From a virus (taxonomy: Duplodnaviria > Caudoviricetes), in the IMG/VR virus record IMGVR_UViG_3300032227_000976, positions 5,239 to 69,238 of that record: 64,000 nt of DNA. One strand, written 5' to 3'. Positions 5,146 through 36,393 of the stretch are shown piece by piece. The notes under the pieces are model-generated. The model had not been told where the DNA came from and did not search any database. It was given only the letters and a program-made list of their open reading frames with translations. A program made the position numbers and the translations under genes. Within the stretch, counting starts at the first letter, position 1. Each line of letters starts with the position of its first letter.

Positions 5146-5312
5146 TGGCTGTCATCGGCTCGGATATCACCATTGACGGCGAACGCCTCATGCTGTGGTG
5201 CGAAGCACCCATCCCAGGACAGTGGTGGGCACGCAAGCAGGATGGAAAGACCACAGCACTCGTGCGCAAGTCCAAGGCTAAAGACACCGCTGGGATGTGG
5301 GTGTGGGTATGA
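5145..5312 (+). CDS. Small hypothetical protein (55 aa, MAVIGSDITIDG...)
   Basis: Read by eye; TGATG overlap upstream and ATGA overlap downstream. Confidence 0.65.
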   Translation: MAVIGSDITIDGERLMLWCEAPIPGQWWARKQDGKTTALVRKSKAKDTAGMWVWV

Positions 5313-5467
5313 AGCCGTGCACATGCCGGGCACAGAACCTGGTCTTAGACAAGCCGTACCTCATTCGTCAACGCATCGCCGAGATGCTTCACAAGCAGGG
5401 CATGGTGCAAGTCAGGTGCCCTACATGCCGGCTGTTCACGGTATGGACAGCGAAGAAGACGACATGA
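5309..5467 (+). CDS. Small Zn-ribbon protein (52 aa, MKPCTC...RCPTCR)
   Basis: Read by eye; coupled ATGA overlaps; CxC and CxxC pairs. Confidence 0.6.
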   Translation: MKPCTCRAQNLVLDKPYLIRQRIAEMLHKQGMVQVRCPTCRLFTVWTAKKTT

Positions 5468-5673
5468 GTTTCGACCCAGATGAGACACGCCCAAGGCATT
5501 GCTGGGTGCTGCGCACAAATGGCATCCACATCATGTACGCGTGCGCTCACTGCAAGTTCAATCCCCGGCAGCCAATGTGGCCATTCACCCCTGATGGGCA
5601 TGTCAAAGTGGTTCAGTCGCTAGAGCAGCATTCGACACACTGCTGGTTTGTGCGACACAAGGTGGCACTATGA
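5464..5673 (+). CDS. Small Cys/His protein (69 aa, MSFDPDETRPRHCW...)
   Basis: 3' part of the 166-aa ORF; ATGA-coupled to the previous gene and to terminase. Confidence 0.6.
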   Translation: MSFDPDETRPRHCWVLRTNGIHIMYACAHCKFNPRQPMWPFTPDGHVKVVQSLEQHSTHCWFVRHKVAL

Positions 5674-15408: not shown

Positions 15409-16057
15409 GTTTGGCAGCCCGAATGATTCGGGTAGGCGTGAGCGCGGCGCGGCGTATGCGGGGATGGGTACGGCGCTTGCTGGGGGCGGCGCGTACGCGT
15501 ATGGCCGTGGGCAGCGGCGCATGGGGATTGCGGCGCAGGATATTGGCGCTGAGCGGCATGCCGCTGGGCTTGCCGGGGCGAAGAAGATCATGGACGAGGC
15601 GCAACGTGGGTCAGCGACTGGCAAGGTTGATGGCCGATCAAAGGCTGGCAGGCAGTTGAAGAATTTCAAGGTCGAGGTGGAGGCTGGGCGCGACCAGTAC
15701 TGGTCTGGGAAGAAGATGGTGTCCCGGTCGAAGCCGTACCGTATCGGCGGTCTTGCGGCTCTCGCTGCGGGCGCTGGCCTGATGGGTGCTGGCATTATCG
15801 GTTCGGACCGCGCTCGGGCCCGTGGCTTGCGGCCCAAGAAGTCCACTGTCACAGACATCAATGAATACCGGGAGCGCGGCGCAAACGTGCAGGGCGGTCT
15901 GCTGCGTAATGCCGCGGGCGAGCGTAACGAAATCCCGGGCAGGAAGGTGCCAGCCAAGCAGCGGCAGTACTTGGTGGACCGCGGCTTGGTGAACCCGGAT
16001 GCGTCTGACAGGGAAGTTTTGGACGTACTGCGTCGGGAGCGCGCAAATGGCCGTTGA
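15389..16057 (+). CDS. Basic Ala/Gly-rich head-module protein with hydrophobic segments
   Basis: RBS GGAGG; AGMGTALAGGGAYAYG and IGGLAALAAGAGLMGAGII segments; overlaps the portal start. Confidence 0.75.
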   Translation: MSIQQPRFGSPNDSGRRERGAAYAGMGTALAGGGAYAYGRGQRRMGIAAQDIGAERHAAGLAGAKKIMDEAQRGSATGKVDGRSKAGRQLKNFKVEVEAGRDQYWSGKKMVSRSKPYRIGGLAALAAGAGLMGAGIIGSDRARARGLRPKKSTVTDINEYRERGANVQGGLLRNAAGERNEIPGRKVPAKQRQYLVDRGLVNPDASDREVLDVLRRERANGR

Positions 16058-17600
16058 CCCGAACTACGCGAATGTCGGGCAGAACATCGGCGCGTTGAAG
16101 ACCGTGGACGTGAACCCGGTTGATGAAGCGGCGATGGTTCAAAACGAGCGCCTGAGCCCGTTCATGGAATTGGGCACGACTGGTTTGAAGCGTGCCGCCG
16201 GGTACATCGATGAGGAGTTCCTGCCGCAGCTGCGGGGCCGCAAGTCGGTGCAGGTCTTCAAGGAGATGAGCGAGAACGACCCACTGGTGGGCGCGTTGCT
16301 GTTCTCTATCGACCGGCTGCTGCGCAACGTGGAGTGGACGGTGAAGCCGGGCGGGAAGACCGCCGAGGATGCCCGCGCCGCTGAGTTCGTCGAGCAGTGC
16401 ATGAGCGACATGTCGGAGCCGTGGAGCAACTTCATCGGTGAGGTTCTCACGATGCTTCCGTTCGGCTGGTCGTGGCATGAGGTGGTGTACAAGCGACGTG
16501 GCGGCCAGTGGAACCGCAATCCGAAGACGCGGAGCAAGTTCAGCGACAACTTGATCGGGTGGCGCAAGATGCCGATCCGGTCGCAGGAGACGCTGCTGCG
16601 CTGGGTGTTTGACGACTCTGGCGACACGAAAGCAATGGTGCAGTTGGCCCCGCCGTTCTACAAGACGACGGTTCTTCCGGTGGAGCGGAGCCTGCTGTTT
16701 CGGTACAAGTCGAACAAGGGGAACCCTGAGGGCATTTCGATGCTTCGGAACGCCTACCGGCCGTGGTACATGAAGAAGCGCCTTGAGGAGTTTGAGGCTG
16801 TCGGCGTGGAGCGTGATCTCGCTGGCTTACCGGTGGTGAAGGTTCCTGCGGAGATGCTGCGGGCGAAGCCGGGCACGGAGCAGGCGAAGGCGGTGGAGGC
16901 GTTCAAGCGGATGGTGAAGAGCGTCCGCAGGGATGAGCAGGAGGGCATCGTGTTCCCGATGGCCTACGACCAGGACACGAAGCAACCGCTGTATTCGTTT
17001 GAGCTGATGGGCGGCGGCGGGGGTAGACAGTTCAACACGGACGAGATCATCAAGCGGTATGAGGAGCGGATCCTCATGACGGTCCTTGCAGATTTCATCC
17101 TGGTGGGTCATCAGTCAGTGGGGTCGTACAGCCTGCACACGGATAAGACGGGCATTTTCCGCACGAGCCTGAACTCGATCGCAGAGTCGATCGCTGACGT
17201 ACTGAACCGCTATGCGCTGCCTCGTCTGTTCATGGTGAATGGTTGGAGGCCGGAGCATCTGCCGGAGATCGTTCCGACGGACGTTGATTCGCCGGATATC
17301 GCGCAGTTGGGCCAGTTCATGCAGGCGATGGCGGGCACTGGGGTGAGTTGGTTCCCGGATGGGGAGTTGGAGAACTTCGTGCGCGAGGCGGCCCGGCTGC
17401 CGAAACTGGACAAGGACCAAGTGGAGATCCGCCGCCAAATGCAGATGCGCAGCGATGCAACGGCGTTCGCAGACGCGAACACGGCGTACGTGCAGTCGGA
17501 GCAGGCGTCTGAGATGGCCGAGTCGGGGCAGTTGCCTCTTCCGGGCATGGAGGGCATGGATTCGCAGGGGAAGCCACAGCAACAGAAGGGTGCGCCGTGA
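16047..17600 (+). CDS. Portal protein (DUF935/Mu gp29-like)
   Basis: ELGTTGL...EEFLPQL.G; MLPFGWSWHEVVYK; GNPEGISMLRNAYRPW; GVERDLAGLP; GSYSL motifs. Confidence 0.9.
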   Translation: MAVDPNYANVGQNIGALKTVDVNPVDEAAMVQNERLSPFMELGTTGLKRAAGYIDEEFLPQLRGRKSVQVFKEMSENDPLVGALLFSIDRLLRNVEWTVKPGGKTAEDARAAEFVEQCMSDMSEPWSNFIGEVLTMLPFGWSWHEVVYKRRGGQWNRNPKTRSKFSDNLIGWRKMPIRSQETLLRWVFDDSGDTKAMVQLAPPFYKTTVLPVERSLLFRYKSNKGNPEGISMLRNAYRPWYMKKRLEEFEAVGVERDLAGLPVVKVPAEMLRAKPGTEQAKAVEAFKRMVKSVRRDEQEGIVFPMAYDQDTKQPLYSFELMGGGGGRQFNTDEIIKRYEERILMTVLADFILVGHQSVGSYSLHTDKTGIFRTSLNSIAESIADVLNRYALPRLFMVNGWRPEHLPEIVPTDVDSPDIAQLGQFMQAMAGTGVSWFPDGELENFVREAARLPKLDKDQVEIRRQMQMRSDATAFADANTAYVQSEQASEMAESGQLPLPGMEGMDSQGKPQQQKGAP

Positions 17601-17854
17601 TGCTTCAGGAGTTGGCACGTAGGTACGCGGTCGGCATTTGTGTGCTTGTCGCCGAGGGCAAAACGACCGATGCGGTTGAGGCGACGAAGGTGTTTGTCGC
17701 AGAGGCGATGGCGCTGGGGCATACACCGTTTGATGCGATGTTTGCCTTGTTTCAGACATCTGTTGGGTGCGCGGTGGCAGCGGGCGACTACATCCCGGGT
17801 GGTGCTGCTGAGTATTTCTCCGGGTGCGCGCTGGGTTTGGCGGTGCAGTCATGA
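17597..17854 (+). CDS. Hypothetical protein (85 aa)
   Basis: Coupled overlaps with the portal and the next gene. Confidence 0.65.
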   Translation: MMLQELARRYAVGICVLVAEGKTTDAVEATKVFVAEAMALGHTPFDAMFALFQTSVGCAVAAGDYIPGGAAEYFSGCALGLAVQS

Positions 17855-20800
17855 CGGTGTCGATTGATTCGTACGCAAATCCTCGGGAGGCCGAGGATCG
17901 CAGACGGGCGTTGAAGCACATCGCTGTGGGTGGCGTGATCACGGGTGGCGCTGCGGCAGCCGAGTATGGGCTGGATCGCCGGTTGAAGGCAAAGGGCGCG
18001 AAGGGCCCGTTTATTTCGGCAGTGAATCGCACGTTCAAGCCGAAGACGCATGGCCCTCATATTGCGGGACGCCTCGCGACCCGTTCACTGTCAGCGACTG
18101 GCTTGCCGGTTATGGCGTATGGGTTGTGGAATATCGCGAACCCGAAGGACGAGGTCGAGGACTTGGATTTCAATCGTCATGTGGTGCGCCCGGCGGTGGA
18201 TCACGTGACGTTGCGCGATCAGCGGAACAAGTTGAAGACGCTTCGCAAGTCGCTGACGCAGGGTGAGCAGGACTCGCTGGTGCGTCGTAAGGAGCGCGGC
18301 ACTCGGATCAGTCATGCGGCCGGCGGGCTTGGTGTGGCGGCGTTGGCGTTGCGTGCCCCGCAAGCAGCGAAGTTTGCGTTGAAGCGCTCTGAGCGGGCGT
18401 GGAAGTTACGCCCGGTGCTGCGTGCGGCTATGTCGGAGCCGAAGGCGACGGCGGCGTCGAACACTCTTGGTGTGGCGTCGATTGGCACGGGGTCGATCGG
18501 GTCGTTCAACTATGCGGCGCAGCAGAAGCTTGAGGCGAAGCAGGTGAAGAAGTCTTTGCCTGCTGCTTTTCGTGGCAAGACTTTGACCGAACTGAATAGT
18601 CGCGGTCCTGCCGGTGAGTACATGGCGGCTCGCAGGGCGGCAAACAATTACGGACGCGTGGCGGCTAGGTCGCTTCAGGACAGTTCGGTTCCGCTTGGGC
18701 TGGTGCAGTCAGGGATCGCAAGCGGCAGTGTTGCTCGTGTTCGCTCGCGCGCTCGGCTAACTCATCCCAAGCTGAAGCGGTCACGCGTCAAGAAGTCCCT
18801 GTATGACGGCATGGTGAAGGGCATCGGCCGGGTGCGCGTGGTGGAGCGTTCGAAGCCGGGGTACGTGACGGTGGTCGATTCTCGGGACACACGCCGGTTC
18901 ATGCCGGAGTCGCGGGTGACGCCTGTGCGCAAGCCGAGACCGGTTGAGGTTGATAAGCCGTCAGTGGCGCAAGGTGAGCAGTTGACGTTGTTCAAGTCTG
19001 ACCGGTTCCTTCGGGACTACGGCGACCGGATCAGTACGAAGGCGGAGTCGGGCTACAAGTACTTGAAGGACGGCCGCGACCAGCGCCGGGTCAACGCAGG
19101 GATTGGCGCTACGGTGTCGGGCTTGTCTGGGGCGATGGCGTATTCAGCGGCTCGTGGCCGTCGTTTCGGCTGGGCTGGCGGCCATGGCGCGCTCGCTGGC
19201 CTATCTGCTGTGAGCACAGTGAGAAGTGCCCGTGAGGCGGGCCGCTGGGATGCGCGGATGGGGAAGATAAAGGCGAAGGCGATGGAGCGTGCCGCTGCCG
19301 GTGAGTATGGCCGCGACCGAGTGGTGGTGAAGGCGGATGAGCGCAAGGGGGATGACAAGCGCGGTGCGTTCGCTGCTGGTGCCGGTTTGGGCGCTGCGGC
19401 GATCGCTGGTATTCCGCTGCCGATGCGTCTTCCTGTAAATAGGGAAGCATCAAGGGGGATCGCGGGCAGGCTGGATGGCGCTGACTCTGGTCGAGCCTCA
19501 GTGAGGGATGTGCGCGGCGTCGCGACGGGCGAGGGAACTCGCTGGGCTGCAAGCATTAACCAGGACCGTCTTGCGGCATCAATGGCTGACCGTCGTGAGG
19601 CTGGCAAGCCTGCGCAGGACCCGGGACGTCCCGTGCGTCTACGGCGTGCCCCTGACGGGAGCATGCGGGTCATCGATGGCCATCACCGGATTAAGGCGTT
19701 GATGGACTTGGGCGAGAAGGACGTGGATGTTCGGGTGGAGCATTCGGGCCGCTCGCATCGGACGTGGGTGCCGCTTGCTCAGCGGGCGAAGTATTTGAGG
19801 GATGTGAGCCGTGCCCGTGAGTTCACCGGCCAGCGTGACCTTGGGGAGATACGGGCGAATGCGGCCCGCCCGATCCCACGTGCGGCGCGGGTAGGGAACC
19901 GGTTGCGGTCGCGCGCTGAGCGTGGCGCGCTGGCGTTGCGCCGCCCGGCTGGTGTGGCCGGGCTTGCTGCGGCTGCCGGTGTGGCGACAGGCGGCGTGGT
20001 GGCGCATCGGATGGCGAACCGGAAGAAGGTGGAGAAGTCGTTCACTTATGACAGCAAGGGGCGTCCGAATGGTGCGATCCCGGTGTCGCAGATGTCGGTC
20101 GAGCAGCGCGGGTTGTTGCGGGAGCAGGCCGAACGGATGGCGCGTACCCGTAAGGAGAAGGGCGCAAAGTTCCCGGGATTGAAGCCGCTGGTGGAGCGTG
20201 GGGTTCGGGCGCAGCGTCCGGCGACGTCTCGTGCGGAGCAGTCGGCGAAGTATCGGGCGACACGTATTGAGCGCCGTCATGGGGAGGCTCTTGCGGAGAA
20301 TGCGTCCCGGTCTGCGAACGCGTTGAAGCGGCGCAGTCTGGTCGCACCAAGCCAGTTGGGTAAATGGGGCGCTGGGCTCGCACTTGCTGGTGGAGGCGCG
20401 GCGATGCTCGCTGCGCGCGGCAATGACAAGGAACGGGCCGGGGGCAAGGCTGGTGATGCGGTGATCGCCGCTGGGGCTGGTCTGGGGGCTCGGGAAGCGG
20501 TGATGGGTGCTGGTGGCTGGGCGACGAAGCGCAGCATTGAACGGTATCGGGAGCGCAAGCTGCGTAACCCTGAGGCGAAGGCCGCGTACAACCGGGACTG
20601 GAAGGCGTTCCAGGAGCGCGAGGGGTTCAAGCAGTTCGGGGTGAAGCATCCGGGGGACCGCATCGACATGACGAACCATGACACGCAGGTCCGGGTGGGC
20701 CGCCGGTATCCGACGTCTATCCCTGGTGGTCGCGCTGCTCGCGCACTGGCGTGGAAGAACTCCCGTCAGGTGTCGTGGGGCTCAAAGATTGGAGTCCCGA

Positions 20801-20967
20801 TTGCTGCCGCGTCGCTGGCACTGTCGAGTGGGCAACCCGTGGAAAAGGCCCTTATCCCAAGGTTGCCGAGATTGGGCAGCCGGATCGCACGCCCGTCGAT
20901 TCGCAGCAGCTACGTGGGCACAAGCGCCCGCGGCAGGAAGTTCACCGTTCGTGGAACGGTCAGGTAG
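17851..20967 (+). CDS. Large modular basic Ala/Gly-rich protein (about 1038 aa) containing a ParB/Srx-like domain
   Basis: Seven hydrophobic-x-K|(S/A) junctions, many GxxxG segments, and PVRL...RVIDGHHRIKAL..LG ParB-like motif. Confidence 0.85.
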   Translation: MTVSIDSYANPREAEDRRRALKHIAVGGVITGGAAAAEYGLDRRLKAKGAKGPFISAVNRTFKPKTHGPHIAGRLATRSLSATGLPVMAYGLWNIANPKDEVEDLDFNRHVVRPAVDHVTLRDQRNKLKTLRKSLTQGEQDSLVRRKERGTRISHAAGGLGVAALALRAPQAAKFALKRSERAWKLRPVLRAAMSEPKATAASNTLGVASIGTGSIGSFNYAAQQKLEAKQVKKSLPAAFRGKTLTELNSRGPAGEYMAARRAANNYGRVAARSLQDSSVPLGLVQSGIASGSVARVRSRARLTHPKLKRSRVKKSLYDGMVKGIGRVRVVERSKPGYVTVVDSRDTRRFMPESRVTPVRKPRPVEVDKPSVAQGEQLTLFKSDRFLRDYGDRISTKAESGYKYLKDGRDQRRVNAGIGATVSGLSGAMAYSAARGRRFGWAGGHGALAGLSAVSTVRSAREAGRWDARMGKIKAKAMERAAAGEYGRDRVVVKADERKGDDKRGAFAAGAGLGAAAIAGIPLPMRLPVNREASRGIAGRLDGADSGRASVRDVRGVATGEGTRWAASINQDRLAASMADRREAGKPAQDPGRPVRLRRAPDGSMRVIDGHHRIKALMDLGEKDVDVRVEHSGRSHRTWVPLAQRAKYLRDVSRAREFTGQRDLGEIRANAARPIPRAARVGNRLRSRAERGALALRRPAGVAGLAAAAGVATGGVVAHRMANRKKVEKSFTYDSKGRPNGAIPVSQMSVEQRGLLREQAERMARTRKEKGAKFPGLKPLVERGVRAQRPATSRAEQSAKYRATRIERRHGEALAENASRSANALKRRSLVAPSQLGKWGAGLALAGGGAAMLAARGNDKERAGGKAGDAVIAAGAGLGAREAVMGAGGWATKRSIERYRERKLRNPEAKAAYNRDWKAFQEREGFKQFGVKHPGDRIDMTNHDTQVRVGRRYPTSIPGGRAARALAWKNSRQVSWGSKIGVPIAAASLALSSGQPVEKALIPRLPRLGSRIARPSIRSSYVGTSARGRKFTVRGTVR

Positions 20968-20976
20968 GGAGACGAC

Positions 20977-23900
20977 ATGGCAGTGATGAGCGTGCTGGAG
21001 ACGATCACCAGGAACGATGAGGCGGCTGGCTGTTTCCTCATCGATACGGTCGTGTACGACTATCTGGCTGACGTCGCGAAAGCGCATGAGGATGACTTGC
21101 GTGAGGTGTACTCGCTGTGGTCGCTGGACCGTGTGCAGGTCGCGAAGCGAGCTCTGGGCCGCAGGTATGTGTCGGACATGGTGTCGGGGGAGTACCCGGG
21201 CGATGACGTGTTGGGGATGTCGGATTGGCTGTCTGGCATTGAGCGTTTCGTGTCTGCTGCTTCCGTGTCGAAGGCTTTCGAGTATTTCAACATTGATGGC
21301 AACCGGGTGCGCCGTGACGTGAACCGTGATTCGCGTGGCCAGTTCGCTCGTGGTGTGAACCAGAACAAGACGACGAAGTTGCGTGATGTGGCGGGCCAGC
21401 CGGATCGGATCAGCCCGACGTTGAAGGGGTATTTCGACGGGAACCTCGTGCCGCGCGATGGACTTGATCCTGATGAGTTGAAGGGCGCGGAGCGTCATCA
21501 GGGCCAGTGGGATCAGGTGAACCGGATCGTCTCGGGGTTTTCCCGTGATTTCAAGGGCTCGGAGAAGTCTGTTGATGTCTTGCTGACGGTGCAGGATTCG
21601 GAGTCGGGCGATATCCGCGAGGTCGGATTCCCGCTGTCTCGGTTCAACCGGAGGGACGGTGATTCTCCGGAGCATTCGCTTCCTGACTTGCGGGATTTGA
21701 AGCCGTTGACGAACGAGTCGATCATGTCGGTTCGGATTGAGCCGAATAGGAACGCGTCGGACGCGGACGTGGCGCGGTTGGTTTCGTACAACTCGTTGGG
21801 GTCTGTCGGCGGTCAGGCGTTGGCGTCGTTGGCGAACGCAGACCCGGCCCGGCTTGAGAACTTGCGTGATGCGCTGCGGATGCCGGGGTCTAGTGACGCT
21901 GCGCCGAAGCCAGGCTTGTCACGCCTGTTCGGTCTGCTTGGGTCTGGCGCGAAGGTGCTGGAGGAGGGCTTCGGCTCGAACAAGGTGACGCAGATGGCGC
22001 GGTTTGTGGGCGCTGTGGGGCCGCAGGCTGAGGAAGTTCTGAGCCCGTACGTGCGCCGCGCCGCGTACCGTTATCGCGGTACGGAGGTGAAGCCATCCAC
22101 GGCGTTGAACCCTGCGACTGCTGACCCGAATATTGAAGCCACGCAGCGGGAACGCGGCCTGACTGGTGATTCGCTTGCCCAGCAGGTGATTGCCGATAAC
22201 GCGAGCTTGTACTTGGCGACGACGTTGCCGAAGGATCCGATCCTCGCGCGCTTGTCGGAGAAGTCAGGGCAGGTGTTGCCGAGTCGCGGGGCGATCTTTG
22301 ACTCGCAGGGAAGGCCAGTGACGGAGGCTGTCGGGTTCACTGACGACCACTATCTGCCGTTCGATTTGAAGAACCTTGGGTCGTTGCGGGGTGGGCAGTA
22401 TGTGCGGACGCGGGTGACGGGTGGGCTGACTGGCGAGGACGTGTACGCGGCGGTGATGACGGGCGCGAGGAACGTGCAGGTGGTGAGCGAGTCCGGGGTG
22501 TTCACGCTGGAGTTCCAACCGGATTTCCGTGGTGCGCGTGCGAACTCGGACAAGGCGAGGTCGATGTATGACCGGTACTTGAAGATTCTTGATGCTGTCG
22601 ACAAGTCGGGCTTGTACTTGCAAGACCTGCCTCCGCAGAAGATCCGGGAGATCAACCGGATGGCGAGGGATCAAGCGAAATACGGTGGAGATGAGGATGC
22701 GATCCGCGAGGAGTTGACGCAGGCGGCGCGGGACGAGATGGATGATGTCAGTGACACGGAGTTGAAGTCTCTCGCGGCGCAGGCGTTCAAGATCGCCACG
22801 GGTAAGGAAGTCGATCCTGAGAATGCGCTGGCGGAGGGCGCTGCACTGCCGAGCCGTCAGCGTCGTGCGTTCAACGAGTCGTTGGAGGATGCCGAGGCGA
22901 TGGCCCGGTCGTCGAAGGTGAATCGGCTTCGCTTGAACGGTGAGGGCTATGCGACGGCGTTGAAGACGCTGGAGGCGCAGTTCCCGCAGTTCATCCGACG
23001 AACGGATCGCCGTGACTTGTCTGCGCTTGGCAAGGAGGCCGGCCGGGACATGCCAAAGACTCGCAGGCTGCAACAGGACCGTGGATACGTGTCTCCTGGG
23101 GGCTTGCGGGCCGACAAGGTGCGGAGCGGTTTCTACGCCAGTGGATCCATCAACCAGTCGCCTAAGTCTCAAAGTGCCAGAAGTGGTTCAACTCCCGCCA
23201 GCGTGGCTTCTTCGGCCTCTGAAGGCCAGTCTGCTGGAGCAACTGGGCAGGAAACGACCCCGAAGACTGGCGGGGAGACGGATTCACGCCCTGGAGCACC
23301 GGACCCGGCGACGGCACGCGGAGCCGAGCAGCGCTTCATCGCCCGGCAGAAGCAGTTCGATGCGACGTTTAAGAAGAAGGCCGCTGCACTTGGCGGTGAC
23401 CTGTCGCTCATCGTCTCCGACATCGACCCCGAAACCGCCGACTCGTACCAGACGAATGACTTTGAGTCGATGACGACGCCGCAGCGCCGGGCCATGTGGC
23501 TCATCGCGAATATTGAGGGCGATCGAACTGTTCAAGCGCTCACCGATCCGGGGACCCGGGAGGATGCGATCAGTGCGCTGACGACGCCGAAGGTCATCAA
23601 GGCGGCATTTACTCAGCTCATGAAAATCACCGAGGCGTCCGAAGGCGGGATGGTGGACATCGGTGGGGAGCAGATGAGCGTCGATGACGCCGTTGATGCG
23701 TTGTCTGCGCGTGCAGGCGAACTCGCGGAACTGTCCGCAATGGCAGAGCCGTTCGCTGCGTTCCCGACGGACCCGGCGAAGGCCGCATTCCACACTGGGC
23801 TATCTCCGATGAGGATTCCGGAGATCTCTTCCATTGGAAGCGTCGAACAGCTTGAGGCTTACGCTGCGAAGAACCCGGCTGTCGCTAGTGTGGCTGCGGC

Positions 23901-24327
23901 CATGGGCAAGGAACCAATGTCCATGCTTGGCGGGCTCGTCAAGAAGCAGGTCGGCGCGATGGCGAAGGTGTCTGCTGCGAAGGCATCTGGGGTGAGGGGA
24001 ACAGACCCGTCTGTCTACATGACGAAGGACGAGTTTGCGGCAGCGTACCCGGGCCGGGAGTTCACGATCCAGTCGATTCTCGCAGCCGACCCGCAAAAGG
24101 ATGCGATGGACATTCAGCGCGCATGGTCACTGGCCGTCACAGCAAAAGTGTTGCAATCATTGGGGGATGATCTCCCAAAAGATGGAGCGGCCAACAGGCC
24201 GCTGTCGAAGGCGGCAGCCGGGGTGAGGGTTCTGGCCCCGACGGACCCACTGTCGATCGCAGTGGCGGACAGGGTGATGAAGGGCCTGCCCTTCGTTCCG
24301 AGGATGGTATCGACTGGCCTGAGGTAG
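20977..24327 (+). CDS. Large head-module protein (1116 aa) with degenerate JAB-like domain; also the N-terminal part of a predicted -1 frameshift fusion
   Basis: RBS GGGAGA; long uninterrupted ORF; RDSRGQF motif; JAB-like segment near 22260-22512. Confidence 0.85.
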   Translation: MAVMSVLETITRNDEAAGCFLIDTVVYDYLADVAKAHEDDLREVYSLWSLDRVQVAKRALGRRYVSDMVSGEYPGDDVLGMSDWLSGIERFVSAASVSKAFEYFNIDGNRVRRDVNRDSRGQFARGVNQNKTTKLRDVAGQPDRISPTLKGYFDGNLVPRDGLDPDELKGAERHQGQWDQVNRIVSGFSRDFKGSEKSVDVLLTVQDSESGDIREVGFPLSRFNRRDGDSPEHSLPDLRDLKPLTNESIMSVRIEPNRNASDADVARLVSYNSLGSVGGQALASLANADPARLENLRDALRMPGSSDAAPKPGLSRLFGLLGSGAKVLEEGFGSNKVTQMARFVGAVGPQAEEVLSPYVRRAAYRYRGTEVKPSTALNPATADPNIEATQRERGLTGDSLAQQVIADNASLYLATTLPKDPILARLSEKSGQVLPSRGAIFDSQGRPVTEAVGFTDDHYLPFDLKNLGSLRGGQYVRTRVTGGLTGEDVYAAVMTGARNVQVVSESGVFTLEFQPDFRGARANSDKARSMYDRYLKILDAVDKSGLYLQDLPPQKIREINRMARDQAKYGGDEDAIREELTQAARDEMDDVSDTELKSLAAQAFKIATGKEVDPENALAEGAALPSRQRRAFNESLEDAEAMARSSKVNRLRLNGEGYATALKTLEAQFPQFIRRTDRRDLSALGKEAGRDMPKTRRLQQDRGYVSPGGLRADKVRSGFYASGSINQSPKSQSARSGSTPASVASSASEGQSAGATGQETTPKTGGETDSRPGAPDPATARGAEQRFIARQKQFDATFKKKAAALGGDLSLIVSDIDPETADSYQTNDFESMTTPQRRAMWLIANIEGDRTVQALTDPGTREDAISALTTPKVIKAAFTQLMKITEASEGGMVDIGGEQMSVDDAVDALSARAGELAELSAMAEPFAAFPTDPAKAAFHTGLSPMRIPEISSIGSVEQLEAYAAKNPAVASVAAAMGKEPMSMLGGLVKKQVGAMAKVSAAKASGVRGTDPSVYMTKDEFAAAYPGREFTIQSILAADPQKDAMDIQRAWSLAVTAKVLQSLGDDLPKDGAANRPLSKAAAGVRVLAPTDPLSIAVADRVMKGLPFVPRMVSTGLR

Positions 24328-25211
24328 ACAAGGTAAAGGCGCGACTGAACAAACTGACTGGCATGGACTCGGTCGTCGCCCAGATCGACGATCTCATCAA
24401 CGACGTGCAACTTAACCGGGAACGTGAAGAGGCTGGTCTTCCTGTGTCTGATTCGGGACCGGCGAATCTCATCTTCTCCGGGCCTTCCGGGACGGGCAAG
24501 ACGACGATCGCGAACCTCATCGCCCCCTTGTACAACGCACTCGGTATCACGCCATCGTCGAAGATCGTCTCGGTGAACCCAGCCGACCTGTACGGATCGT
24601 TCCTCGGAGTGACGCAGGAAAAGGTCCAGCAGGCGTTCAAGAAAGCGAAGGGCGGTGTCCTGTTCATTGACGAGGCGTACGGCCTCGTTACTCAAGACGG
24701 CGGCAACCGCGACATGTACGGCTTGCAGGCGCTGGCAGTCATGGCATCGGAGATGACCAAGAACCCTGACACTGTCGTGATTCTCGCTGGATACGAGAAG
24801 GACCTGAAGGAGATGCTGTCGAACAATGAGGGCATGCCTCGCCGGTTCCAGCGGGTCATCAACTTCAAGGACTTCGACCAGGACGAACGGTTCGACATCC
24901 TGCTTGGCGTGCTCGATGAGGGCAAGTACAAGCTCGCATCCCCTGAACTCATGGATGCCCTTGAGGATTCGGTGTTGGACACAGGCGGCGGTAATGCCGG
25001 TGACGTGCAGAACCTCGCAGCCGAGATCCTTGCCGCGCAAAAGCAGCGCCTGTCCAGTGAGAAGCCGGCAGCAGACCGCAAGGCGCAACTCGCGACGATC
25101 ACGGCTGCGGACATCAAGGCCGGGTCAAAGCGGTACCGCGAGATGGGGTCAGCGACTAATCCGCTGCGGGGTGCGTTGGTGCCGACGAGCCGGAAGCGCA
25201 AGACCGCATGA
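24171..25211 (+). CDS. AAA+ ATPase of the CbbX/SpoVK/EccA family (likely expressed as the -1 frameshift C-terminus)
   Basis: ARLNKLTGMDSVVAQI; NLIFSGPSGTGKTTIA; DLYGSFLGVT; GGVLFIDEAYGL; VILAGYEK; NEGMPRRF; GNAGDVQN. Confidence 0.9.
   Translation, partial: SPKRWSGQQAAVEGGSRGEGSGPDGPTVDRSGGQGDEGPALRSEDGIDWPEVDKVKARLNKLTGMDSVVAQIDDLINDVQLNREREEAGLPVSDSGPANLIFSGPSGTGKTTIANLIAPLYNALGITPSSKIVSVNPADLYGSFLGVTQEKVQQAFKKAKGGVLFIDEAYGLVTQDGGNRDMYGLQALAVMASEMTKNPDTVVILAGYEKDLKEMLSNNEGMPRRFQRVINFKDFDQDERFDILLGVLDEGKYKLASPELMDALEDSVLDTGGGNAGDVQNLAAEILAAQKQRLSSEKPAADRKAQLATITAADIKAGSKRYREMGSATNPLRGALVPTSRKRKTA
24174..24203 (+). other. Predicted -1 programmed ribosomal frameshift signal (C CCA AAA + hairpin)
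   Basis: Heptamer 24174-24180 is in frame with the upstream ORF; spacer GATGG; stem AGCGGCC-AACA-GGCCGCT (24186-24203). The -1 frame opens after TGA 24168-24170 and runs into the ATPase. Confidence 0.8.
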
Positions 25212-27877
25212 AGCGCTGGTGGGACGACGCAGGTGAGTCACTTGGGATCCTTGATCGTGTCGACGATTCGGACGTAGTGCAGGGGGTGGGGACGGCGCTG
25301 CTTGGCTATCACGGCCTCGGAACTGGCGTCTTAAGGCCACTGGTGCAGGCGACGCTGGTGGATGAGCGTGCCGTGTGCGATGCGCTTGCCAGTATCGACC
25401 TGGTTCCGGTGGCGAAAGCTCTGGCTGAGGCAACCCGACCGGTGATGGGCGATGCGTCGGATAGGTATGGGGTGCTGCTTGCCCATGACATGCATGAGCG
25501 GGCGGTGGATTCGACGACTAGGTTTGTGAGGTCGTTGACGGCGACGGGGATGGATTGGCCGAGTGCGCTGTCGCGTGCAGCAGACATTCATGGGGTTCCA
25601 TCTGACCAGATGGGTGTCGCCGGGGAGCGTCTTCGAGCCCAGCGGCTTCCTGTCGCGGCGCAGCAGGATTGGGCGGACCGTGCACTGGTCGGGTATGCGG
25701 CGCATGTGGGCAAGCGTGAAGCCGATGGCGTGGTGTCGAAGTCCATCCGGATTCGCACAGATTCGTGGGATGAGCGCGATCACCCTCGGGACGATGACGG
25801 CCAGTTCACAGCAAAGACCCGCGCTTCCACCAGTGGGGGAGATGACGGCATCGGCAGTCTTCGGCGTGCTGGCAAGTCGAGGAAGGCCCGTCTGGAGAGC
25901 CGTAGGCGACGGATGTCACGCGGCAGCAGGACGTCTTCTTCGAATGGCGTGGTTTTCGCCGGGTCTTCGACGGGTGACGTGGCGTTCGCGGGGTCTGGTG
26001 GCGATGAAACGCCGGTGGGGGCTAGGAGCCGTCAGGTGTCTGTCCGTGAGCAGCAGCCGTCTGCGCGGGAGCGCATCGCCGACCGTAGACGGACACGGAT
26101 ACAGGACCGCAGGAGAGCCGCCCGCAGGGAACGCATCAATGCCTTGCTCACTTCGGAGCCGCCGGAGACGCCGGATTCTTTCTCCGGAGGGCTTGGTAAT
26201 CCGTTCCCGAACGAGCCACGCGACGGGAACGGAAAGTACTTTGGTCACCGCATGGTGCAGCGTAGAGACCTGTACATGCTCATTCCCGGCCATCTTGCGG
26301 AGGAGATCGCTAAAGATGGCGCGTTCAACGTCGGCCGAGTCGCTGAGACGCGCTGGCCGGGTGAGATGTCTGCGCTGACTGCCAAGGAACTGAAAGTGGA
26401 GATCGCCGAGCTCCAAGAGCGGGACAAGGCGATGCGCGCCGCAGGCGAGCACGTTCACAACCCGGTCGGATCACAGGTCATCATTCGGTTCGTTGGCAAA
26501 GAGATGGCGTGGGCACCCAATTCGTCCTCGCACAAGGATGACGAGTCGGAGATCGCTACCGGTGCGACATTCAAGGTTCTTAGGGATAACGCCGACCTGC
26601 ATAGCCCGGAATGGCTTGAGGTTAATGCGACGGATTTCACGTGGCGGGCTACCGCAGCGTCGCCGAGTAAGAAGTTCCGGTCGATGTCGGTGAAGTTAGA
26701 TAACCAGGACGAGTTCGCGTTCCAAGGCTCTGATAACGACGGCTACGGGGATGACGAAGATGACGACGACGAAACCCCGCCGCTGCCGTATGACACTCTC
26801 CACCTCTTCGGGAAGGAAGATGACTGGAATGAGAGCTTGCACCCCCGTGACACGGATGGGACGTTCCGCGCCAAGGGATCGGGACTGAACGGGGTGGAAT
26901 GGAACAGGGATGAGGCGTGGGCTGCGTACCGGAAGGCCCGTAATGAGCGTCTGGCTAAGCGGCGGAAGCGCTTGGCACGTCAAGTGAGGCAAGCACGCAA
27001 AGCATCTGACCGGGTGGGTGTGCAGTTCGCCGGGTCATCCGGTCTCGCTGACGTCGCGGATGCGAGAACGGATACAGCCATTTCTGGGGACCGTGTCACA
27101 CCTGCGCCGTCGCGCGCTCAAGGGAGCCGGGAGCGCATACGTCAGCGGATCAGGGATCGTCGCAGGGAGCGGATGCACGAGCGCCGCAAGGCGCTGCGCG
27201 ACACCGGGTATAAGGGAGACCCGGCGAATGACCTGACCGGCTTGAGTGCAGCGTTCCCTGCCGATGCGGATGCGGCATTCCTTCTGCGCGTCGGAGAGGA
27301 CGGCGGCACCGTTGATGACGAGAAACCTTTCAAAAAGATCATCAGCAGTTTGATCTCCCGGTCAATGCAAGGCAAGGAGTCAATTGCGATCCTTGATAAG
27401 GACCGTTCACCAGGCCGAGAACTGGTTGCGATGCCGGAGTACGAGTCACCGGTGCCGGTGTTTGACACCGCGAACGAGGCAGACGAGTTCGCAGTGCAGT
27501 ACATCTCCAGCATTTACGATGCGTGGGACTCTGACGAGAAACTGCCGAGGCGGCTGTCCGAGTTCATTCAAGAGTCTGAGCAGGCTGGCGTTCACGTGTT
27601 CTCGAAGGCGGTCCCGCACGACACTCTGAAAGGCAAGTGGGTGCCGATGATGTTTTGGAGCGCTCCTTCTTTTGAGGCGCAGCAGATCATCGTCGCGACG
27701 GACGCGCAATGGAAGCGAGCTGCGTTGGGTGAGATCCCGACGTTTGTCGCAAGCGATCCAGTGCCGATGTCTCAGATGCTTGCCGCGAATGGATATGGTG
27801 CAGAACGCATCGAAACAACGAATGATGACTTGGTGCAGGTAATTCGGATGGATTTCATGGACAATGTGAGGCATTAG
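25208..27877 (+). CDS. Large head-module protein (889 aa) with two tandem HPRD..G.F/Arg-rich modules
   Basis: WDERDHPRDDDGQF and WNESLHPRDTDGTF, each followed by Arg-rich and GV.FAGSS segments. Confidence 0.85.
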   Translation: MKRWWDDAGESLGILDRVDDSDVVQGVGTALLGYHGLGTGVLRPLVQATLVDERAVCDALASIDLVPVAKALAEATRPVMGDASDRYGVLLAHDMHERAVDSTTRFVRSLTATGMDWPSALSRAADIHGVPSDQMGVAGERLRAQRLPVAAQQDWADRALVGYAAHVGKREADGVVSKSIRIRTDSWDERDHPRDDDGQFTAKTRASTSGGDDGIGSLRRAGKSRKARLESRRRRMSRGSRTSSSNGVVFAGSSTGDVAFAGSGGDETPVGARSRQVSVREQQPSARERIADRRRTRIQDRRRAARRERINALLTSEPPETPDSFSGGLGNPFPNEPRDGNGKYFGHRMVQRRDLYMLIPGHLAEEIAKDGAFNVGRVAETRWPGEMSALTAKELKVEIAELQERDKAMRAAGEHVHNPVGSQVIIRFVGKEMAWAPNSSSHKDDESEIATGATFKVLRDNADLHSPEWLEVNATDFTWRATAASPSKKFRSMSVKLDNQDEFAFQGSDNDGYGDDEDDDDETPPLPYDTLHLFGKEDDWNESLHPRDTDGTFRAKGSGLNGVEWNRDEAWAAYRKARNERLAKRRKRLARQVRQARKASDRVGVQFAGSSGLADVADARTDTAISGDRVTPAPSRAQGSRERIRQRIRDRRRERMHERRKALRDTGYKGDPANDLTGLSAAFPADADAAFLLRVGEDGGTVDDEKPFKKIISSLISRSMQGKESIAILDKDRSPGRELVAMPEYESPVPVFDTANEADEFAVQYISSIYDAWDSDEKLPRRLSEFIQESEQAGVHVFSKAVPHDTLKGKWVPMMFWSAPSFEAQQIIVATDAQWKRAALGEIPTFVASDPVPMSQMLAANGYGAERIETTNDDLVQVIRMDFMDNVRH

Positions 27878-27885
27878 GAGGATTC

Positions 27886-28698
27886 ATGGATTCGCGTACT
27901 GCTGTAGACGTGCTGCTTGATGTTGACCCGGGGTTCGTTGAGCTGTGTAAGTCGCTGCTTGGTGACGCCGTTGACCCTGTCGACGTGTGGGAGTTTATGT
28001 ACTCGACCGACCCGGTTGTGAAGATGTCGCCGGATTCCGCTGACATGGCGGTCCGGCGGGGCCTTGGCGCTGCGCGTGGCGTGTTGCGCAAGGTGACGGG
28101 GTCTAGGAAGGCGAAGACGGGCGCGCTGATGCTCGTGAGTGGTGCGACTGGTGCTACGGCATCTGACGCGATCCGGTCGAAGGGCGGCGACTCATCACGG
28201 CAGTACGGCTACTCCATCACCCGGGAAGATCCGGCCATGAGCGGCGGCGTCGGTAAGGCCGACGATGACGACGACACGTTCGCCGTGACGTGGTCAGGTG
28301 AGTTCTCGAAGACCGATGACGAAAAGCGGCAAGTGTTTGGGTGGGCATCTGTCGTGGAGATTGACGGCCAGCCGGTCGTGGACCGCCAAGGCGACTGGAT
28401 CACCCCTGACGAGATTGAGAAGGCCGCGTACCAGTACGTGGTGAAGTCTCGCAAGGGCGGCCATCAGCACAAGCGTGATGGCGATAACCCGTTCCATGCA
28501 TCGGACATGATCGAGAGCATTGTGTTCACACCGGAGAAGATTTCGAAGATGGGTCTTCCGGATGACTTCCCTGTTGGCTGGTGGGTCGGCTACAAGGTCA
28601 ATGACGATGACACGTGGGACAAGGTGAAGAACAGGGACGTGACTGGTTTTTCAATTCACGGAAAAGGCAAGCGGAGCCCTGTGGGGAGTGATGTGTGA
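27886..28698 (+). CDS. Capsid maturation protease, XkdF-like (Peptidase S78_2) with N-terminal extension
   Basis: KRQVFGWASV...DRQGD.I...EIEKAAY.Y...H...MIESIV...GWWVGYKV.D...W..VK....TGFSIHG. Confidence 0.85.
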   Translation: MDSRTAVDVLLDVDPGFVELCKSLLGDAVDPVDVWEFMYSTDPVVKMSPDSADMAVRRGLGAARGVLRKVTGSRKAKTGALMLVSGATGATASDAIRSKGGDSSRQYGYSITREDPAMSGGVGKADDDDDTFAVTWSGEFSKTDDEKRQVFGWASVVEIDGQPVVDRQGDWITPDEIEKAAYQYVVKSRKGGHQHKRDGDNPFHASDMIESIVFTPEKISKMGLPDDFPVGWWVGYKVNDDDTWDKVKNRDVTGFSIHGKGKRSPVGSDV

Positions 28699-31186: not shown

Positions 31187-32167
31187 ATGCCTAGTCCCTC
31201 GCAATCCGATCTTCACGTAAACGTGCCGCTGACGAATGTCAGCATCGCGTACATGCAGTCGTCGGACGCATACATCGCGGACAAGATCTTTCCGAAGGTC
31301 CCCGTGAAGAAGCAGTCAGACTTGTACTGGAAGTACAGCAAGTCTGACTGGCGTCGTACCGATGTCGAACGCCGTGCTCCCTCGACTGAGTCGAAGGGTG
31401 TCGGCTGGAATATGGACACCGACCAGTACTTCGCGCACGTGTACGCCGTCCACAAGGATGTTGACGACCAGTTGCGGTCGAACGCGGACTCGAACTTCAA
31501 TTTGGACCGTGACGCGACGGAGTTCATCACGAACCAACTCCTGCTTAAGCGGGATATCGACTGGAACACGTCGTACTTCCAGCCGGGTATTTGGGCGAAG
31601 GACCAGACTGGCGGCACTGATTTCACCAAGTGGAGCGATGCTGGGTCCGATCCGATCGGAAATGTCGCGGACTGGATCCTTGAGTTCCGCAAGCTCACGG
31701 GCTTCGCCCCGAACAAGATGATCCTGGGTGCTGAGGTCATGAAGTCCCTCAAGCAGCACCCGGACATCATCGACCGCATCAAGTACACGCAGAAGGGCAT
31801 CGTCACAGAGGATCTCATCGCGACCCTCTTCAATGTCGATCAGCTTTTCACGTCGTACGCGACGGTCGCGTCTGGACCGCAGTTTGATGACGCCCGCACT
31901 CAGGACGCGGCGGCGACGTTCGACTTCATCAGCAACGCGAAGTCGGTCCTCCTCGCTTACGCCCCGGGCGCTCCGTCGCTCATGACCCCGTCTGCCGGGT
32001 ACACGTTCACGTGGAACGGCTACCTCGGCGGGAATGGCGAGGGCGTGAAGATCAAGCGGTTCCGCATGGAGCAGATTGCCTCTGACCGCGTGGAGGCGGA
32101 GATGACCTACGACATGAAGGTTGTTTCCAAGGATCTTGGTTCCTTCGCAAAAGAGGTCGTCGCCTGA
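31187..32167 (+). CDS. Major capsid protein (lambda gpE-like)
   Basis: PLTNVSIAY...IADKIFPKVPV.KQSD.YW.Y; PNKMILG...LKQHPDIIDRIKYT; size and position. Confidence 0.9.
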   Translation: MPSPSQSDLHVNVPLTNVSIAYMQSSDAYIADKIFPKVPVKKQSDLYWKYSKSDWRRTDVERRAPSTESKGVGWNMDTDQYFAHVYAVHKDVDDQLRSNADSNFNLDRDATEFITNQLLLKRDIDWNTSYFQPGIWAKDQTGGTDFTKWSDAGSDPIGNVADWILEFRKLTGFAPNKMILGAEVMKSLKQHPDIIDRIKYTQKGIVTEDLIATLFNVDQLFTSYATVASGPQFDDARTQDAAATFDFISNAKSVLLAYAPGAPSLMTPSAGYTFTWNGYLGGNGEGVKIKRFRMEQIASDRVEAEMTYDMKVVSKDLGSFAKEVVA

Positions 32168-35353: not shown

Positions 35354-35866
35354 ATGAGAATTATCCCTAATGAGAATTCTTGGATCGGATTCACAAAGGT
35401 CCGTCCTGCGAATTTCACGGCACCGTCTGTTGCGGAGATCACCGCTGCAATTGACCTGACCAGTTTCATTATCAGTATCACTGCAAATTCGCAGGGCAAC
35501 ACGGTTCCGACCCCGAACATCGACTCGCTGTTTGAGACGTCAGTCCCGGGTACGAGCCAGGCATCGTTTATGTCGGACATGTACCGCGATGACGCCGCGG
35601 ATACTGCGTGGGAGACCCTCCCGCGTGGCACCACGGGATACTTCTACATTTCGCGTTTCGGCGGCACTGGCCCGGGTTACACCCCGGCGGTCGGTGAGCC
35701 TGTCGAGGTGTGGCCGGTTCGTATCGTGTCGCGCAGCGCTTCGGCGATGGCGTCGAATACTGCGCAGACGTTCTCTTGCATGGCGTCTGTTCCTGAGGAG
35801 CCTGCTGAGAACGCGAAGGTCGCAGCGACGCTCACCAGCAATCCTGCTGTGAAGCCCGCAGCATGA
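35354..35866 (+). CDS. Major tail protein
   Basis: APSVAEITAAIDLT..I...N.VPTP..DSLFETS.PG; VEVWPV; RBS AAAGG. Confidence 0.85.
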   Translation: MRIIPNENSWIGFTKVRPANFTAPSVAEITAAIDLTSFIISITANSQGNTVPTPNIDSLFETSVPGTSQASFMSDMYRDDAADTAWETLPRGTTGYFYISRFGGTGPGYTPAVGEPVEVWPVRIVSRSASAMASNTAQTFSCMASVPEEPAENAKVAATLTSNPAVKPAA

Positions 35867-35967
35867 GCTATTCGCAGGAGCCACTGGACGGAATCGATAC
35901 CGAACCGGTGGCTCCTGCGACGCACGATTCACCGGGCCTTAGGGCGCAGACCAGTCGGAGGAAGAAA

Positions 35968-36393
35968 ATGAGTACTGCAACAGAGACACGCCGTCAGGCG
36001 ACGTTGAAGGACTTGCTGAATAAGCCCGCCCGAACAAAGGACGTCGTCCTGACGGTCCCGGATGAGGACGGCACGATGATCGAGTACGTGTTCACGATGC
36101 GTGCGATCGGGTCGAAGGCGTATGACGTCCTCGTTGGGATGCACCCGCCGACACCGGACCAGAAGCGTGAGGGATCGACGTACAACCCTGACACGTTCGG
36201 ACCGGCACTGATCTCGATGTGCTCAGCGAATCCCCGGATGACGCCGAATGAGGCGAAGGAACTCTGGGAGTCCGACGAGTGGAGTCGCGGGGAGGTCATG
36301 GAGATTTTCATGGCATCTGTCGAGGTGAACAGCCGGGGACTTGATGTCCCTTTTACCGCAGCCGACTCCGGTACGACCCGGCGTTCCAGTTAG
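35968..36393 (+). CDS. Tail assembly chaperone (gpG-like)
   Basis: RAIG.K.YD.L...HPPT...YNPDTF.PALI..C; RBS GGAGG. Alternative start at 35863. Confidence 0.85.
   Translation: MSTATETRRQATLKDLLNKPARTKDVVLTVPDEDGTMIEYVFTMRAIGSKAYDVLVGMHPPTPDQKREGSTYNPDTFGPALISMCSANPRMTPNEAKELWESDEWSRGEVMEIFMASVEVNSRGLDVPFTAADSGTTRRSS

Follow-up and report, generated by a model that had tools for sequence, protein, structure and literature searches.

The window (the whole 64-kb stretch of DNA that was analysed) carries a gene for a 1116-aa head-module protein, the end of which overlaps a -1 reading frame that runs on into an AAA+ ATPase. The features of this cassette, with a nearby protease gene, are given below in window coordinates.

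20977..24327, plus strand: 0-frame gene (ORF) for the 1116-aa head-module protein
24162..24167, plus strand: G-rich SD-like run GGGGGA, ending 6 nt 5' of the heptamer
24168..24170, plus strand: TGA closing the -1 frame just 5' of the shift site
24174..24180, plus strand: slippery heptamer C CCA AAA, Pro1067-Lys1068 in the 0 frame
24181-24185: spacer GATGG, 5 nt, from heptamer to hairpin
24186..24203, plus strand: putative stimulatory stem-loop with a 7-bp perfect stem, 5 nt 3' of the heptamer
24181..24327, plus strand: 0-frame tail, 48 residues past Lys1068, with the stop TAG at 24325-24327
24180..24305, plus strand: -1-frame linker, 42 residues, Gly/Ser/Glu/Pro-rich
24306..25211, plus strand: AAA+ ATPase of the SpoVK/CbbX/EccA clade (AAA + AAA_lid_6, by Pfam)
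27886-28698: XkdF-type prohead protease, 2.7 kb downstream

The two reading frames overlap at 24171-24327, and the heptamer lies inside this overlap. It is in the frame of the 1116-aa ORF, with CCA and AAA as 0-frame codons, and is a canonical X XXY YYZ slippery site; the earlier note had called the site 'non-canonical', which was wrong. The rest of its description was borne out. The 5-nt spacer and the perfect 7-bp hairpin follow the heptamer as claimed (stem arms AGCGGCC, 24186-24192, and GGCCGCT, 24197-24203; loop AACA), and the -1 frame, open from 3 nt ahead of the heptamer, has no stop from 24171 to 25211 and leads into the ATPase. On a -1 shift A24180 would be read twice, and the predicted products, which we recomputed and found to be correctly given, are 1116 aa in the 0 frame and 1068 + 343 = 1411 aa for the -1 fusion. 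The -1-frame linker contains the tryptic peptide WSGQQAAVEGGSR.

The ATPase matched the Pfam families PF00004 (4.9e-16) and PF17866 (AAA_lid_6; 2.9e-06). Its Walker A (GPSGTGKTT) and Walker B (LFIDEAY) motifs are conserved, and it keeps an invariant Arg as well as a pore loop of the aromatic-hydrophobic-Gly type. ILAGY and N..G...R were invariant in 10 sequences (G162, Y163, N174, R180), the Arg at N+6 being conserved and that at N+4 not. The SpoVK-EccA-like clade has as its marks a GY signature at sensor 1 together with a conserved Asn that lies upstream of the Arg finger, and its members are described as dedicated chaperones in which variable N-terminal domains recruit the substrate (PMC11513918). 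E-values to CbbX, EccA and SpoVK ranged from 1e-30 to 1e-45, with 126, 155 and 155 bits to TIGR02880, TIGR02881 and TIGR03922 against equivalog cut-offs of 459, 423 and 467. Judged by its motifs and profile scores, the ATPase belongs to the SpoVK-EccA-like clade, and is not CbbX, SpoVK or EccA proper. The sensor-2 Arg is replaced by Gly in the window (GNAGDV), while three relatives (L007, L011 and L013) read GNARDV or GNAREV; the window protein is thus a divergent relative.

The conserved core of the 1116-aa protein spans residues ~345-720, and its C-terminal domain, at 785-1063, is helical. In the AlphaFold model the folded parts stop at residue ~1063 and residues 1064-1086 are disordered, so that the shift site sits exactly where the modelled fold ends; a further helix is modelled at 1091-1101, in the 0-frame tail. 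The frameshift product would lose this 48-residue tail. The protein is encoded between the portal and the prohead protease, next to two other very large proteins of 1047 and 889 aa. For none of the three did Pfam, PHROGs or NCBIfam yield a match, even with E relaxed to 5, apart from an insignificant ParBc_2 match (E 0.1) of the 1047-aa protein. A profile of 20 homologues of the big protein gave nothing above noise against PDB sequences, a search of the ESM Atlas gave no usable match, and Foldseek gave no match at E <= 0.001 with either the whole 1116-aa model or its confident core. The core was modelled with confidence (pLDDT 88), and the best Z in a wide VIA-align comparison was <= 5.2. Its values against JAB/MPN and cytidine-deaminase-like folds (JAMM1 4.5, Sst2 4.0, Cap3 3.9, deaminases 4.4-4.8) all lie below the noise guide of Z 8.

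We further evaluated the signals at the shift site within the window. The heptamer there goes beyond a chance occurrence. CCCAAAA occurs twice on the two strands of the 64 kb, against 5.1 occurrences expected, and the site at 24174 is the sole in-frame copy among 8022 structural-gene codons. From the codon usage of the 1116-aa gene, the odds of x-Pro-Lys being written NNC CCA AAA are ~0.002. None of the 490 control windows from the same gene is as stable as the hairpin (-18.1 kcal/mol), and the hairpin region, folded over 45 nt, has an MFE of -20.3 kcal/mol. Single-hairpin shuffle z-scores were modest (-0.2 to -2.6), since GC-rich RNA folds well anyway. The GGGGGA run, a possible upstream stimulator, forms an anti-SD duplex of -8.9 kcal/mol, at the 6th percentile of same-gene control windows. 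Codon periodicity of the 0 frame is retained across the overlap, and the analysis found no periodicity or independent selection in the -1 frame there. This is as expected of a linker, and equally of an untranslated frame.

Homologues of the big protein were present in 20+ loci, and the signals were conserved with them. All 19 of the 19 other loci that pair the big protein with a -1-frame ATPase keep an in-frame C CCA AAA inside the overlap; they represent ~17 lineages, with ATPase identity from 92% down to 32%. NNC CCA AAA is kept in frame in 23 loci, against codon usage, and the heptamer stays while the residue before Pro-Lys varies (L, R, A, I, G, S, V). The odds of the heptamer per lineage, each from its own codon usage, were 1e-5 to 7e-3, and 0.05 in one lineage. 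A stem-loop begins 4-9 nt past the heptamer in every one of the 22 loci examined, although the stem sequences differ, and its stability lies at a median percentile of 0.011 against same-gene controls; the corresponding median for the SD-like element is 0.03 (18 lineages). The minimum of nucleotide diversity falls at the heptamer and hairpin. The linker is poorly conserved, with little constraint of its own. It is open in all relatives, and its length differs always by multiples of 3, so that the -1 relation stays constant despite the indels. At the protein level, the motif DPLS.AVA.RV.KGLPFVP of the 0-frame tail is conserved across the loci with a -1-frame ATPase (type A).

In searches of wider collections, a megablast comparison of the region with 50,697 phage records gave no match, and tblastn of the ATPase against the same records gave only distant matches, which lay in other contexts (30-37% identity). 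When fused forms (613-1953 aa) were sought in a set of 5.8 billion proteins, four homologues came back and no fusion. The phage and its host are uncultured, and the sole hint at a host is a Microlunatus MAG contig, L094.

Six-frame analysis of viral contigs did recover in-frame fusions. Five relatives (L019, L020, L026, L043 and L050) are natural in-frame fusions of both proteins. Three of these (L026, L043 and L050) retain the heptamer and hairpin, with the -1 stop one codon later, an arrangement resembling a polarity reversal of the dnaX type, in which the 0 frame gives the fusion. Such a reversal is documented for dnaX, for which a near-parity ratio of products has also been argued (PMC5009743); by analogy, the reversed-polarity relatives suggest that the ratio of plain to fused protein may be nearer parity than in the sub-stoichiometric fusion put forward by the earlier note. 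The earlier note had proposed asking whether homologues keep the heptamer and hairpin or are in-frame fusions, and we observed both.

The conserved signals and the natural fusions support its core reading, that CCCAAAA and the hairpin fuse the head-module protein to the ATPase. We put at roughly 0.85 the probability that ribosomes are programmed to shift by -1 at CCCAAAA and so make both the 1116-aa and the 1411-aa product. The upstream SD-like run, C CCA AAA and the downstream stem-loop would form the classical three-part bacterial signal. Ribosomes staying in frame would make the 1116-aa protein with its conserved 48-residue tail; those slipping at Pro1067-Lys1068 would pass through the flexible 42-residue linker into a complete AAA+ ATPase, which would have no translation start of its own, and so make the 1411-aa fusion. 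The efficiency of the shift would govern how many copies carry the motor for each plain one. We infer that the giant protein takes the place of the variable N-terminal targeting domain usual for this ATPase clade, and that it may anchor a ring-shaped, substrate-threading chaperone, with its pore loop intact, to the machinery of head assembly or to capsid cargo whose genes lie between portal and prohead protease. The earlier note had suggested that such a fusion may load, remodel or eject capsid cargo.

More tentatively, and with the odds rather against it, the product might be a head-tethered unfoldase or translocase, carried on a fraction of a giant capsid-associated protein by a CCCAAAA device used family-wide. 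The neighbouring giant proteins would then be loaded into the prohead or prepared for passage through the tail, the motor perhaps gripping their conserved C-terminal tails, as CbbX does with the RbcL tail. It belongs to the same doubtful proposal that the cassette may swap in other modules in relatives (L094).

It is also possible, but in our estimate improbable, that the frameshift serves merely to dose or deliver the ATPase, with the fusion a transient precursor from which cleavage of the putative linker, for example by the XkdF-type protease, frees the enzyme. The length, disorder and poor conservation of the linker are compatible with this, as is the prohead protease gene 2.7 kb downstream, and enzyme delivery by frameshift fusion is a known logic of the Gag-Pol type (PMC5009743). 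The permanently fused relatives, however, also keep a linker, an observation that fits either reading.

Annotation pipelines call a truncated, stand-alone 282-aa ATPase in every relative, and in each of them the first 51 nt past the 0-frame stop contain an ATG or GTG; in L004 and L007 a GTG overlaps this stop (GTGA), which could permit coupled re-initiation. One might therefore propose that no frameshift occurs, that the ATPase is translated separately, from ATG 24363, a non-canonical codon or by termination-reinitiation, and that CCCAAAA and the hairpin owe their conservation to something else. We consider this very unlikely. The ATPase frame has no ATG, GTG or TTG before ATG 24363, and the 20 nt 5' of this codon lack an SD. 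The SpoVK, EccA and CbbX profiles (NCBIfam) and the CbbX and EccA1 structures (PDB) begin their alignment at nt 24333-24336 (residue 55-56 of the open frame), 10 codons 5' of ATG 24363, and the N-terminal helix of the ATPase thus begins upstream of the annotated start. The stretch from the 0-frame stop to the ATG shows three differences from L001, none of which changes a residue in the ATPase frame. Gene-finder starts fall on different residues in different relatives, and a free-standing ATPase gene whose start is conserved was seen in none of the relatives examined. These observations bear out the view of the earlier note that Met 24363 is not the real start; we find that it has no SD, that the family homology begins upstream of it and that its position is not conserved. 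Because the homology starts earlier, with neither a start codon nor an SD, the ATPase must be translated from 5' of ATG 24363. A separate gene would also leave unexplained the constant -1 relation, the heptamer kept against codon usage, the fixed distance of the hairpin and the five fusions.

Two further readings, for which one could cite the in-frame fusions in relatives and the A4 run at the site, are extremely improbable: that the frame break is an artefact or a sign of decay, through an assembly indel or the loss of a once in-frame fusion to pseudogenisation, and that transcriptional slippage on the A run makes the shift. More than 20 contigs, assembled independently and from different samples, repeat this frame structure, the 0-frame tail past the site is conserved as a peptide in its own right, and productive bacterial transcriptional slippage takes runs of ~9 A or T, not 4 (PMC5009743).

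If the programmed frameshift does make the fusion, it would connect an AAA+ clade of dedicated chaperones with the assembly of the phage head or with capsid cargo, a setting in which terminase is the only ATPase expected, and the true, motor-bearing product of 1411 aa would have been missed by annotation throughout this phage group. It would also give a handle on the very large proteins encoded from portal to protease, as the tethered partner is a likely client or adaptor. Frameshift to fusion, fusion with frameshift to truncation, and constitutive fusion would all occur in one family, which thus offers a clean natural series for studying the setting of protein ratios by recoding and the flipping of its polarity, as in the dnaX proposal. 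In the literature on CCCAAAA phage frameshifting, and on frameshifting linked to AAA+ or CbbX and the phage head or capsid, we found no description of this case; the decoding mechanism is textbook, and for its use to attach an AAA+ motor to a head-module protein we found no published account.

Among known systems, E. coli dnaX (tau/gamma; PMC5009743) is alike in its X XXY YYZ heptamer and downstream stem-loop, in the Lys in the A site, in two products with a common N-terminal part and in having both polarities within the family; the GGGGGA run may be the counterpart of its upstream SD-like element, but lies closer to the shift site. The heptamer, however, is C CCA AAA here and A AAA AAG in dnaX, and the proteins here have no kinship with subunits of DNA polymerase III. 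In the window the shift gives the long product, and the 0-frame chain ends in a conserved 48-residue tail of its own.

Lactobacillus phage A2 has -1 frameshifts in its major head (gp5A/gp5B) and major tail proteins (Garcia 2004 and Rodriguez 2005, cited in PMC5009743). There too, a -1 shift near the end of a structural-module gene gives a C-terminally extended second product; A2 extends a major capsid or tail protein by a small structural or Ig-like part, whereas here a complete 300-residue AAA+ enzyme would be placed on a giant non-capsid protein. The A2 site is reportedly C CCA AAA as well. Lambda gpG/gpGT likewise shows a conserved -1 shift in tailed-phage morphogenesis, with an extension that adds a second activity and short and long forms that have a common N-terminal binding part; it belongs to the tail and not the head, its products are of ~140/280 aa and not 1116/1411 aa, and the part appended here is an ATPase.

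In retroviral Gag-Pol (PMC5009743), a shift near the end of the structural ORF puts an enzyme on a fraction of the copies, and by analogy the frameshift fusion could carry its enzyme into the particle at a set ratio. Here, however, the virus is bacterial and the enzyme, an AAA+ chaperone, is of another class than protease or polymerase. CbbX (red-type Rubisco activase; PDB 3SYL, 3ZUH), EccA and SpoVK are alike in the AAA + AAA_lid_6 architecture, the N-terminal helix before Walker A, the GY signature and the pore loop; in contrast to these, the N-terminal part here would be a 1068-residue phage protein joined by recoding.

We re-inspected a candidate −1 frameshift site in the head module of the window, which has a G+C content of ~60% and covers bases 5239-69238 of a 69,238-bp IMG/VR virus record with direct terminal repeats. 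The genes of this module are:

15999-17600, Mu-type portal
17824-20967, 1047-aa protein of no family
20977-24327, 1116-aa protein of no family
24171-25211 (open frame), AAA+ ATPase
25208-27877, 889-aa protein of no family
27886-28698, XkdF-type prohead protease
31187-32167, major capsid protein

Residues 608-641 of the 1047-aa protein (19645-19746) gave a weak, insignificant match to Pfam ParBc_2 (E 0.1), coinciding with a ParB/Srx-like motif seen earlier at this position.

The earlier note had proposed that a −1 shift fuses the 1116-aa protein to the ATPase, and its statements on the sequence of the site were all correct. The heptamer C CCA AAA (24174-24180), formed from the codons CTC CCA AAA of the 0 frame (that of the 1116-aa gene), is followed after a 5-nt spacer by a perfect 7-bp stem at 24186-24203 (AGCGGCC, loop AACA, GGCCGCT). 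The −1 frame is closed by a TGA at 24168-24170 and is thereafter open through to the ATPase stop, giving predicted products of 1116 aa and 1411 aa (1068 + 343). The label "non-canonical" has to be dropped, as C CCA AAA fits the canonical X XXY YYZ pattern. CCCAAAA was under-represented in the window, with 2 copies on the two strands together where 5.1 were expected, which would fit a tendency to avoid a shift-prone heptamer away from its programmed site.

Relatives were gathered independently of the signal, through ATPase protein matches, homologues of the 1116-aa protein and an ATPase-profile scan of viral contigs, and all loci were then analysed by script. We observed the window's arrangement, with the big-protein homologue in the 0 frame and the ATPase in the −1 frame, in 19 other loci (type A: L001, L003-L008, L011-L018, L021, L022, L028 and L040; L009 and L010 were further copies of the L008 sequence). 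These represent ~17 lineages, in which ATPase identity falls from 92% to as little as 32%. All 19 carried C CCA AAA in frame within the overlap of the two reading frames. The distance from heptamer to stop ranged from 117 to 177 nt, indicating that insertions and deletions have occurred, each time by a multiple of three nucleotides. The residue preceding Pro-Lys varied (L, R, A, I, G, S, V); however, its codon always ended in C, while Pro was always CCA and Lys always AAA. In these genes typically 1-15% of the Pro codons are CCA and 1-14% of the Lys codons are AAA, and the per-lineage odds of the heptamer from codon usage were 1e-5 to 7e-3 (0.05 in a single low-GC lineage). Among the six closest sequences, the nucleotide diversity minimum of a 435-nt stretch fell exactly at the heptamer and hairpin.

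A stem-loop began 4-9 nt 3' of the heptamer in every locus, with differing stem sequences (for example AGCGGCC/GGCCGCT, GATCGGCT/AGCCGATC, GGGTCGCC/GGCGACCT and CCGGCTGAT/GTCGGCCGG). Individual hairpins had modest shuffle z-scores, since GC-rich RNA folds anyway. Compared with every in-frame control window from the same gene, the stem-loop position stood at a median percentile of 0.011, and in the window's own gene 0 of 490 controls folded as well. A G-rich, Shine-Dalgarno-like run 6-12 nt upstream was also enriched (median percentile 0.03; only the 6th percentile in the window). These comparisons provide very good support for a programmed −1 frameshift at the heptamer that joins the big protein to the ATPase, a reading to which we give a probability of about 0.85.

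The two frames would end the protein differently. Across type A lineages the 0-frame tail can be recognised by its conserved peptide sequence, DPLS.AVA.RV.KGLPFVP, and 0-frame codon periodicity is maintained in the overlap; the −1 frame there encodes a poorly conserved linker rich in Gly, Ser, Glu and Pro. In the AlphaFold model of the 1116-aa protein (mean pLDDT 70; folded parts 80-92) the last folded helix ends at ~1061-1063 and residues 1064-1086 are disordered, which places the shift site (1067-1068) exactly at a domain boundary. The 0-frame tail (DPLS.AVA.RV.KGLPFVP..STG.R; 24247-24324) and the ATPase C-terminus (PLRGALVPTSRKRK; 25161-25208) have in common a hydrophobic-Val-Pro ... Ser/Thr ... 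basic ending, conserved in several lineages, to which the C-terminus of the 1047-aa protein (20833-20964; ALIPRLPRLGSR) is loosely similar. This motif may be a docking or recognition signal.

The earlier note had proposed testing whether homologues keep the heptamer and hairpin or are natural in-frame fusions. Both were found: type A loci keep the signal, and one continuous frame joins the two proteins in L019, L020, L026, L043 and L050. The first two have no heptamer and would make the fusion alone. The other three retain C CCA AAA in frame and have a hairpin 6 nt beyond it, and in L026 (2916), L043 (2964) and L050 (2964) the −1 frame ends one codon after the slip (CCC AAA AGC TGA; PKS* or PKR*). 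Here the 0 frame would yield the fusion, and a slip the shortened form. A further locus, L094 (contig DATDAP010000559.1, whose assignment to a Microlunatus sp. MAG is the only host hint), encodes a homologue of the 1116-aa protein with the in-frame heptamer but no ATPase. In place of the ATPase the −1 frame (5054-5590) holds a 178-aa module that belongs to no known family, directly followed by a homologue of the 889-aa gene. The cassette seems to work as a general socket into which different C-terminal modules can be placed.

The ATPase (AAA + AAA_lid_6) conserves Walker A (GPSGTGKTT), Walker B (LFIDEAY), an ILAGY signature, a pore loop with an invariant Gly (FLG in the window), a basic tail at the C-terminus and an Asn that precedes an invariant Arg; at the sensor-2 position the window has Gly instead of Arg. 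We class the protein as a divergent relative of the SpoVK/CbbX/EccA clade, and scores far below the equivalog cut-offs ruled out membership in any of the three families. The core of the giant protein (residues 366-715; 22072-23121) has ~40 invariant residues in 20 homologues and, modelled alone, folds confidently (pLDDT 88, pTM 0.83). No solved structure was found that clearly matches it, and likeness to JAB/MPN and cytidine-deaminase-like folds was weak (Z 3.9-5.2).

Because of the gene position, the known behaviour of the clade and the covalent joining of the two parts in three different ways, we infer that some copies of the giant head-module protein would carry a tethered chaperone/unfoldase ring, which could act on the head-assembly machinery or on neighbouring giant proteins. 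In a variant that shares the shift and differs as to function, the ATPase would afterwards be released by proteolysis; we consider this unlikely.

A rival reading is independent or coupled initiation of the ATPase. As claimed earlier, the annotated ATG at 24363 has no Shine-Dalgarno sequence, while other genes of the module have one (GGGAG before 20977, AGGAGG before 27886). No ATG, GTG or TTG lies upstream of this ATG in the −1 open frame. Alignments to the SpoVK, EccA and CbbX profiles and to the CbbX and EccA1 structures begin at open-frame residue 55-56 (24333-24336), 9-10 codons upstream of this Met. Relative L001 is 95% identical; from the 0-frame stop to the ATG it differs at three sites, each a third codon position of the ATPase frame that leaves the amino acid unchanged. 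Gene callers began the ATPase of relatives at varying positions within the conserved N-terminal helix, or at a GTG that overlaps the stop upstream; no start was conserved among them, and no locus holding both proteins encoded the ATPase as a free-standing gene whose start is conserved. The earlier doubt about Met 24363 was well placed: translation of the ATPase very probably starts upstream of it, and separate initiation is very improbable. An artefact or transcriptional slippage can be practically dismissed.

A presumed tail-assembly-chaperone pair (35354-36393), preceding the 2116-aa tape measure, also stands in a −1 relation. We found no X XXY YYZ heptamer in its 58-nt overlap (35809-35866), and its second ORF carries an ATG of its own, which overlaps the stop.

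The mechanism itself is textbook −1 frameshifting, with precedents in dnaX, lambda G/GT, phage A2 head and tail proteins and Gag-Pol (PMC5009743). Our literature searches found no description of a frameshift by which a giant head-module protein acquires an AAA+ ATPase, nor of both polarities together with constitutive fusions within one phage family. Members of the SpoVK/CbbX/EccA clade are described as dedicated chaperones, which recruit a narrow range of clients through variable N-terminal domains (PMC11513918); in the predicted fusion the giant phage protein takes the place of that domain. With its heptamer, its stem-loop and a Shine-Dalgarno-like run that may act as upstream stimulator, the cassette looks like the three-part dnaX type. 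The dnaX homologues show the same role reversal, which is read as a sign of shift efficiencies near 50% (PMC5009743), and L026, L043 and L050 follow the tau/gamma logic, their predicted slipped form resembling the gamma product of E. coli dnaX.
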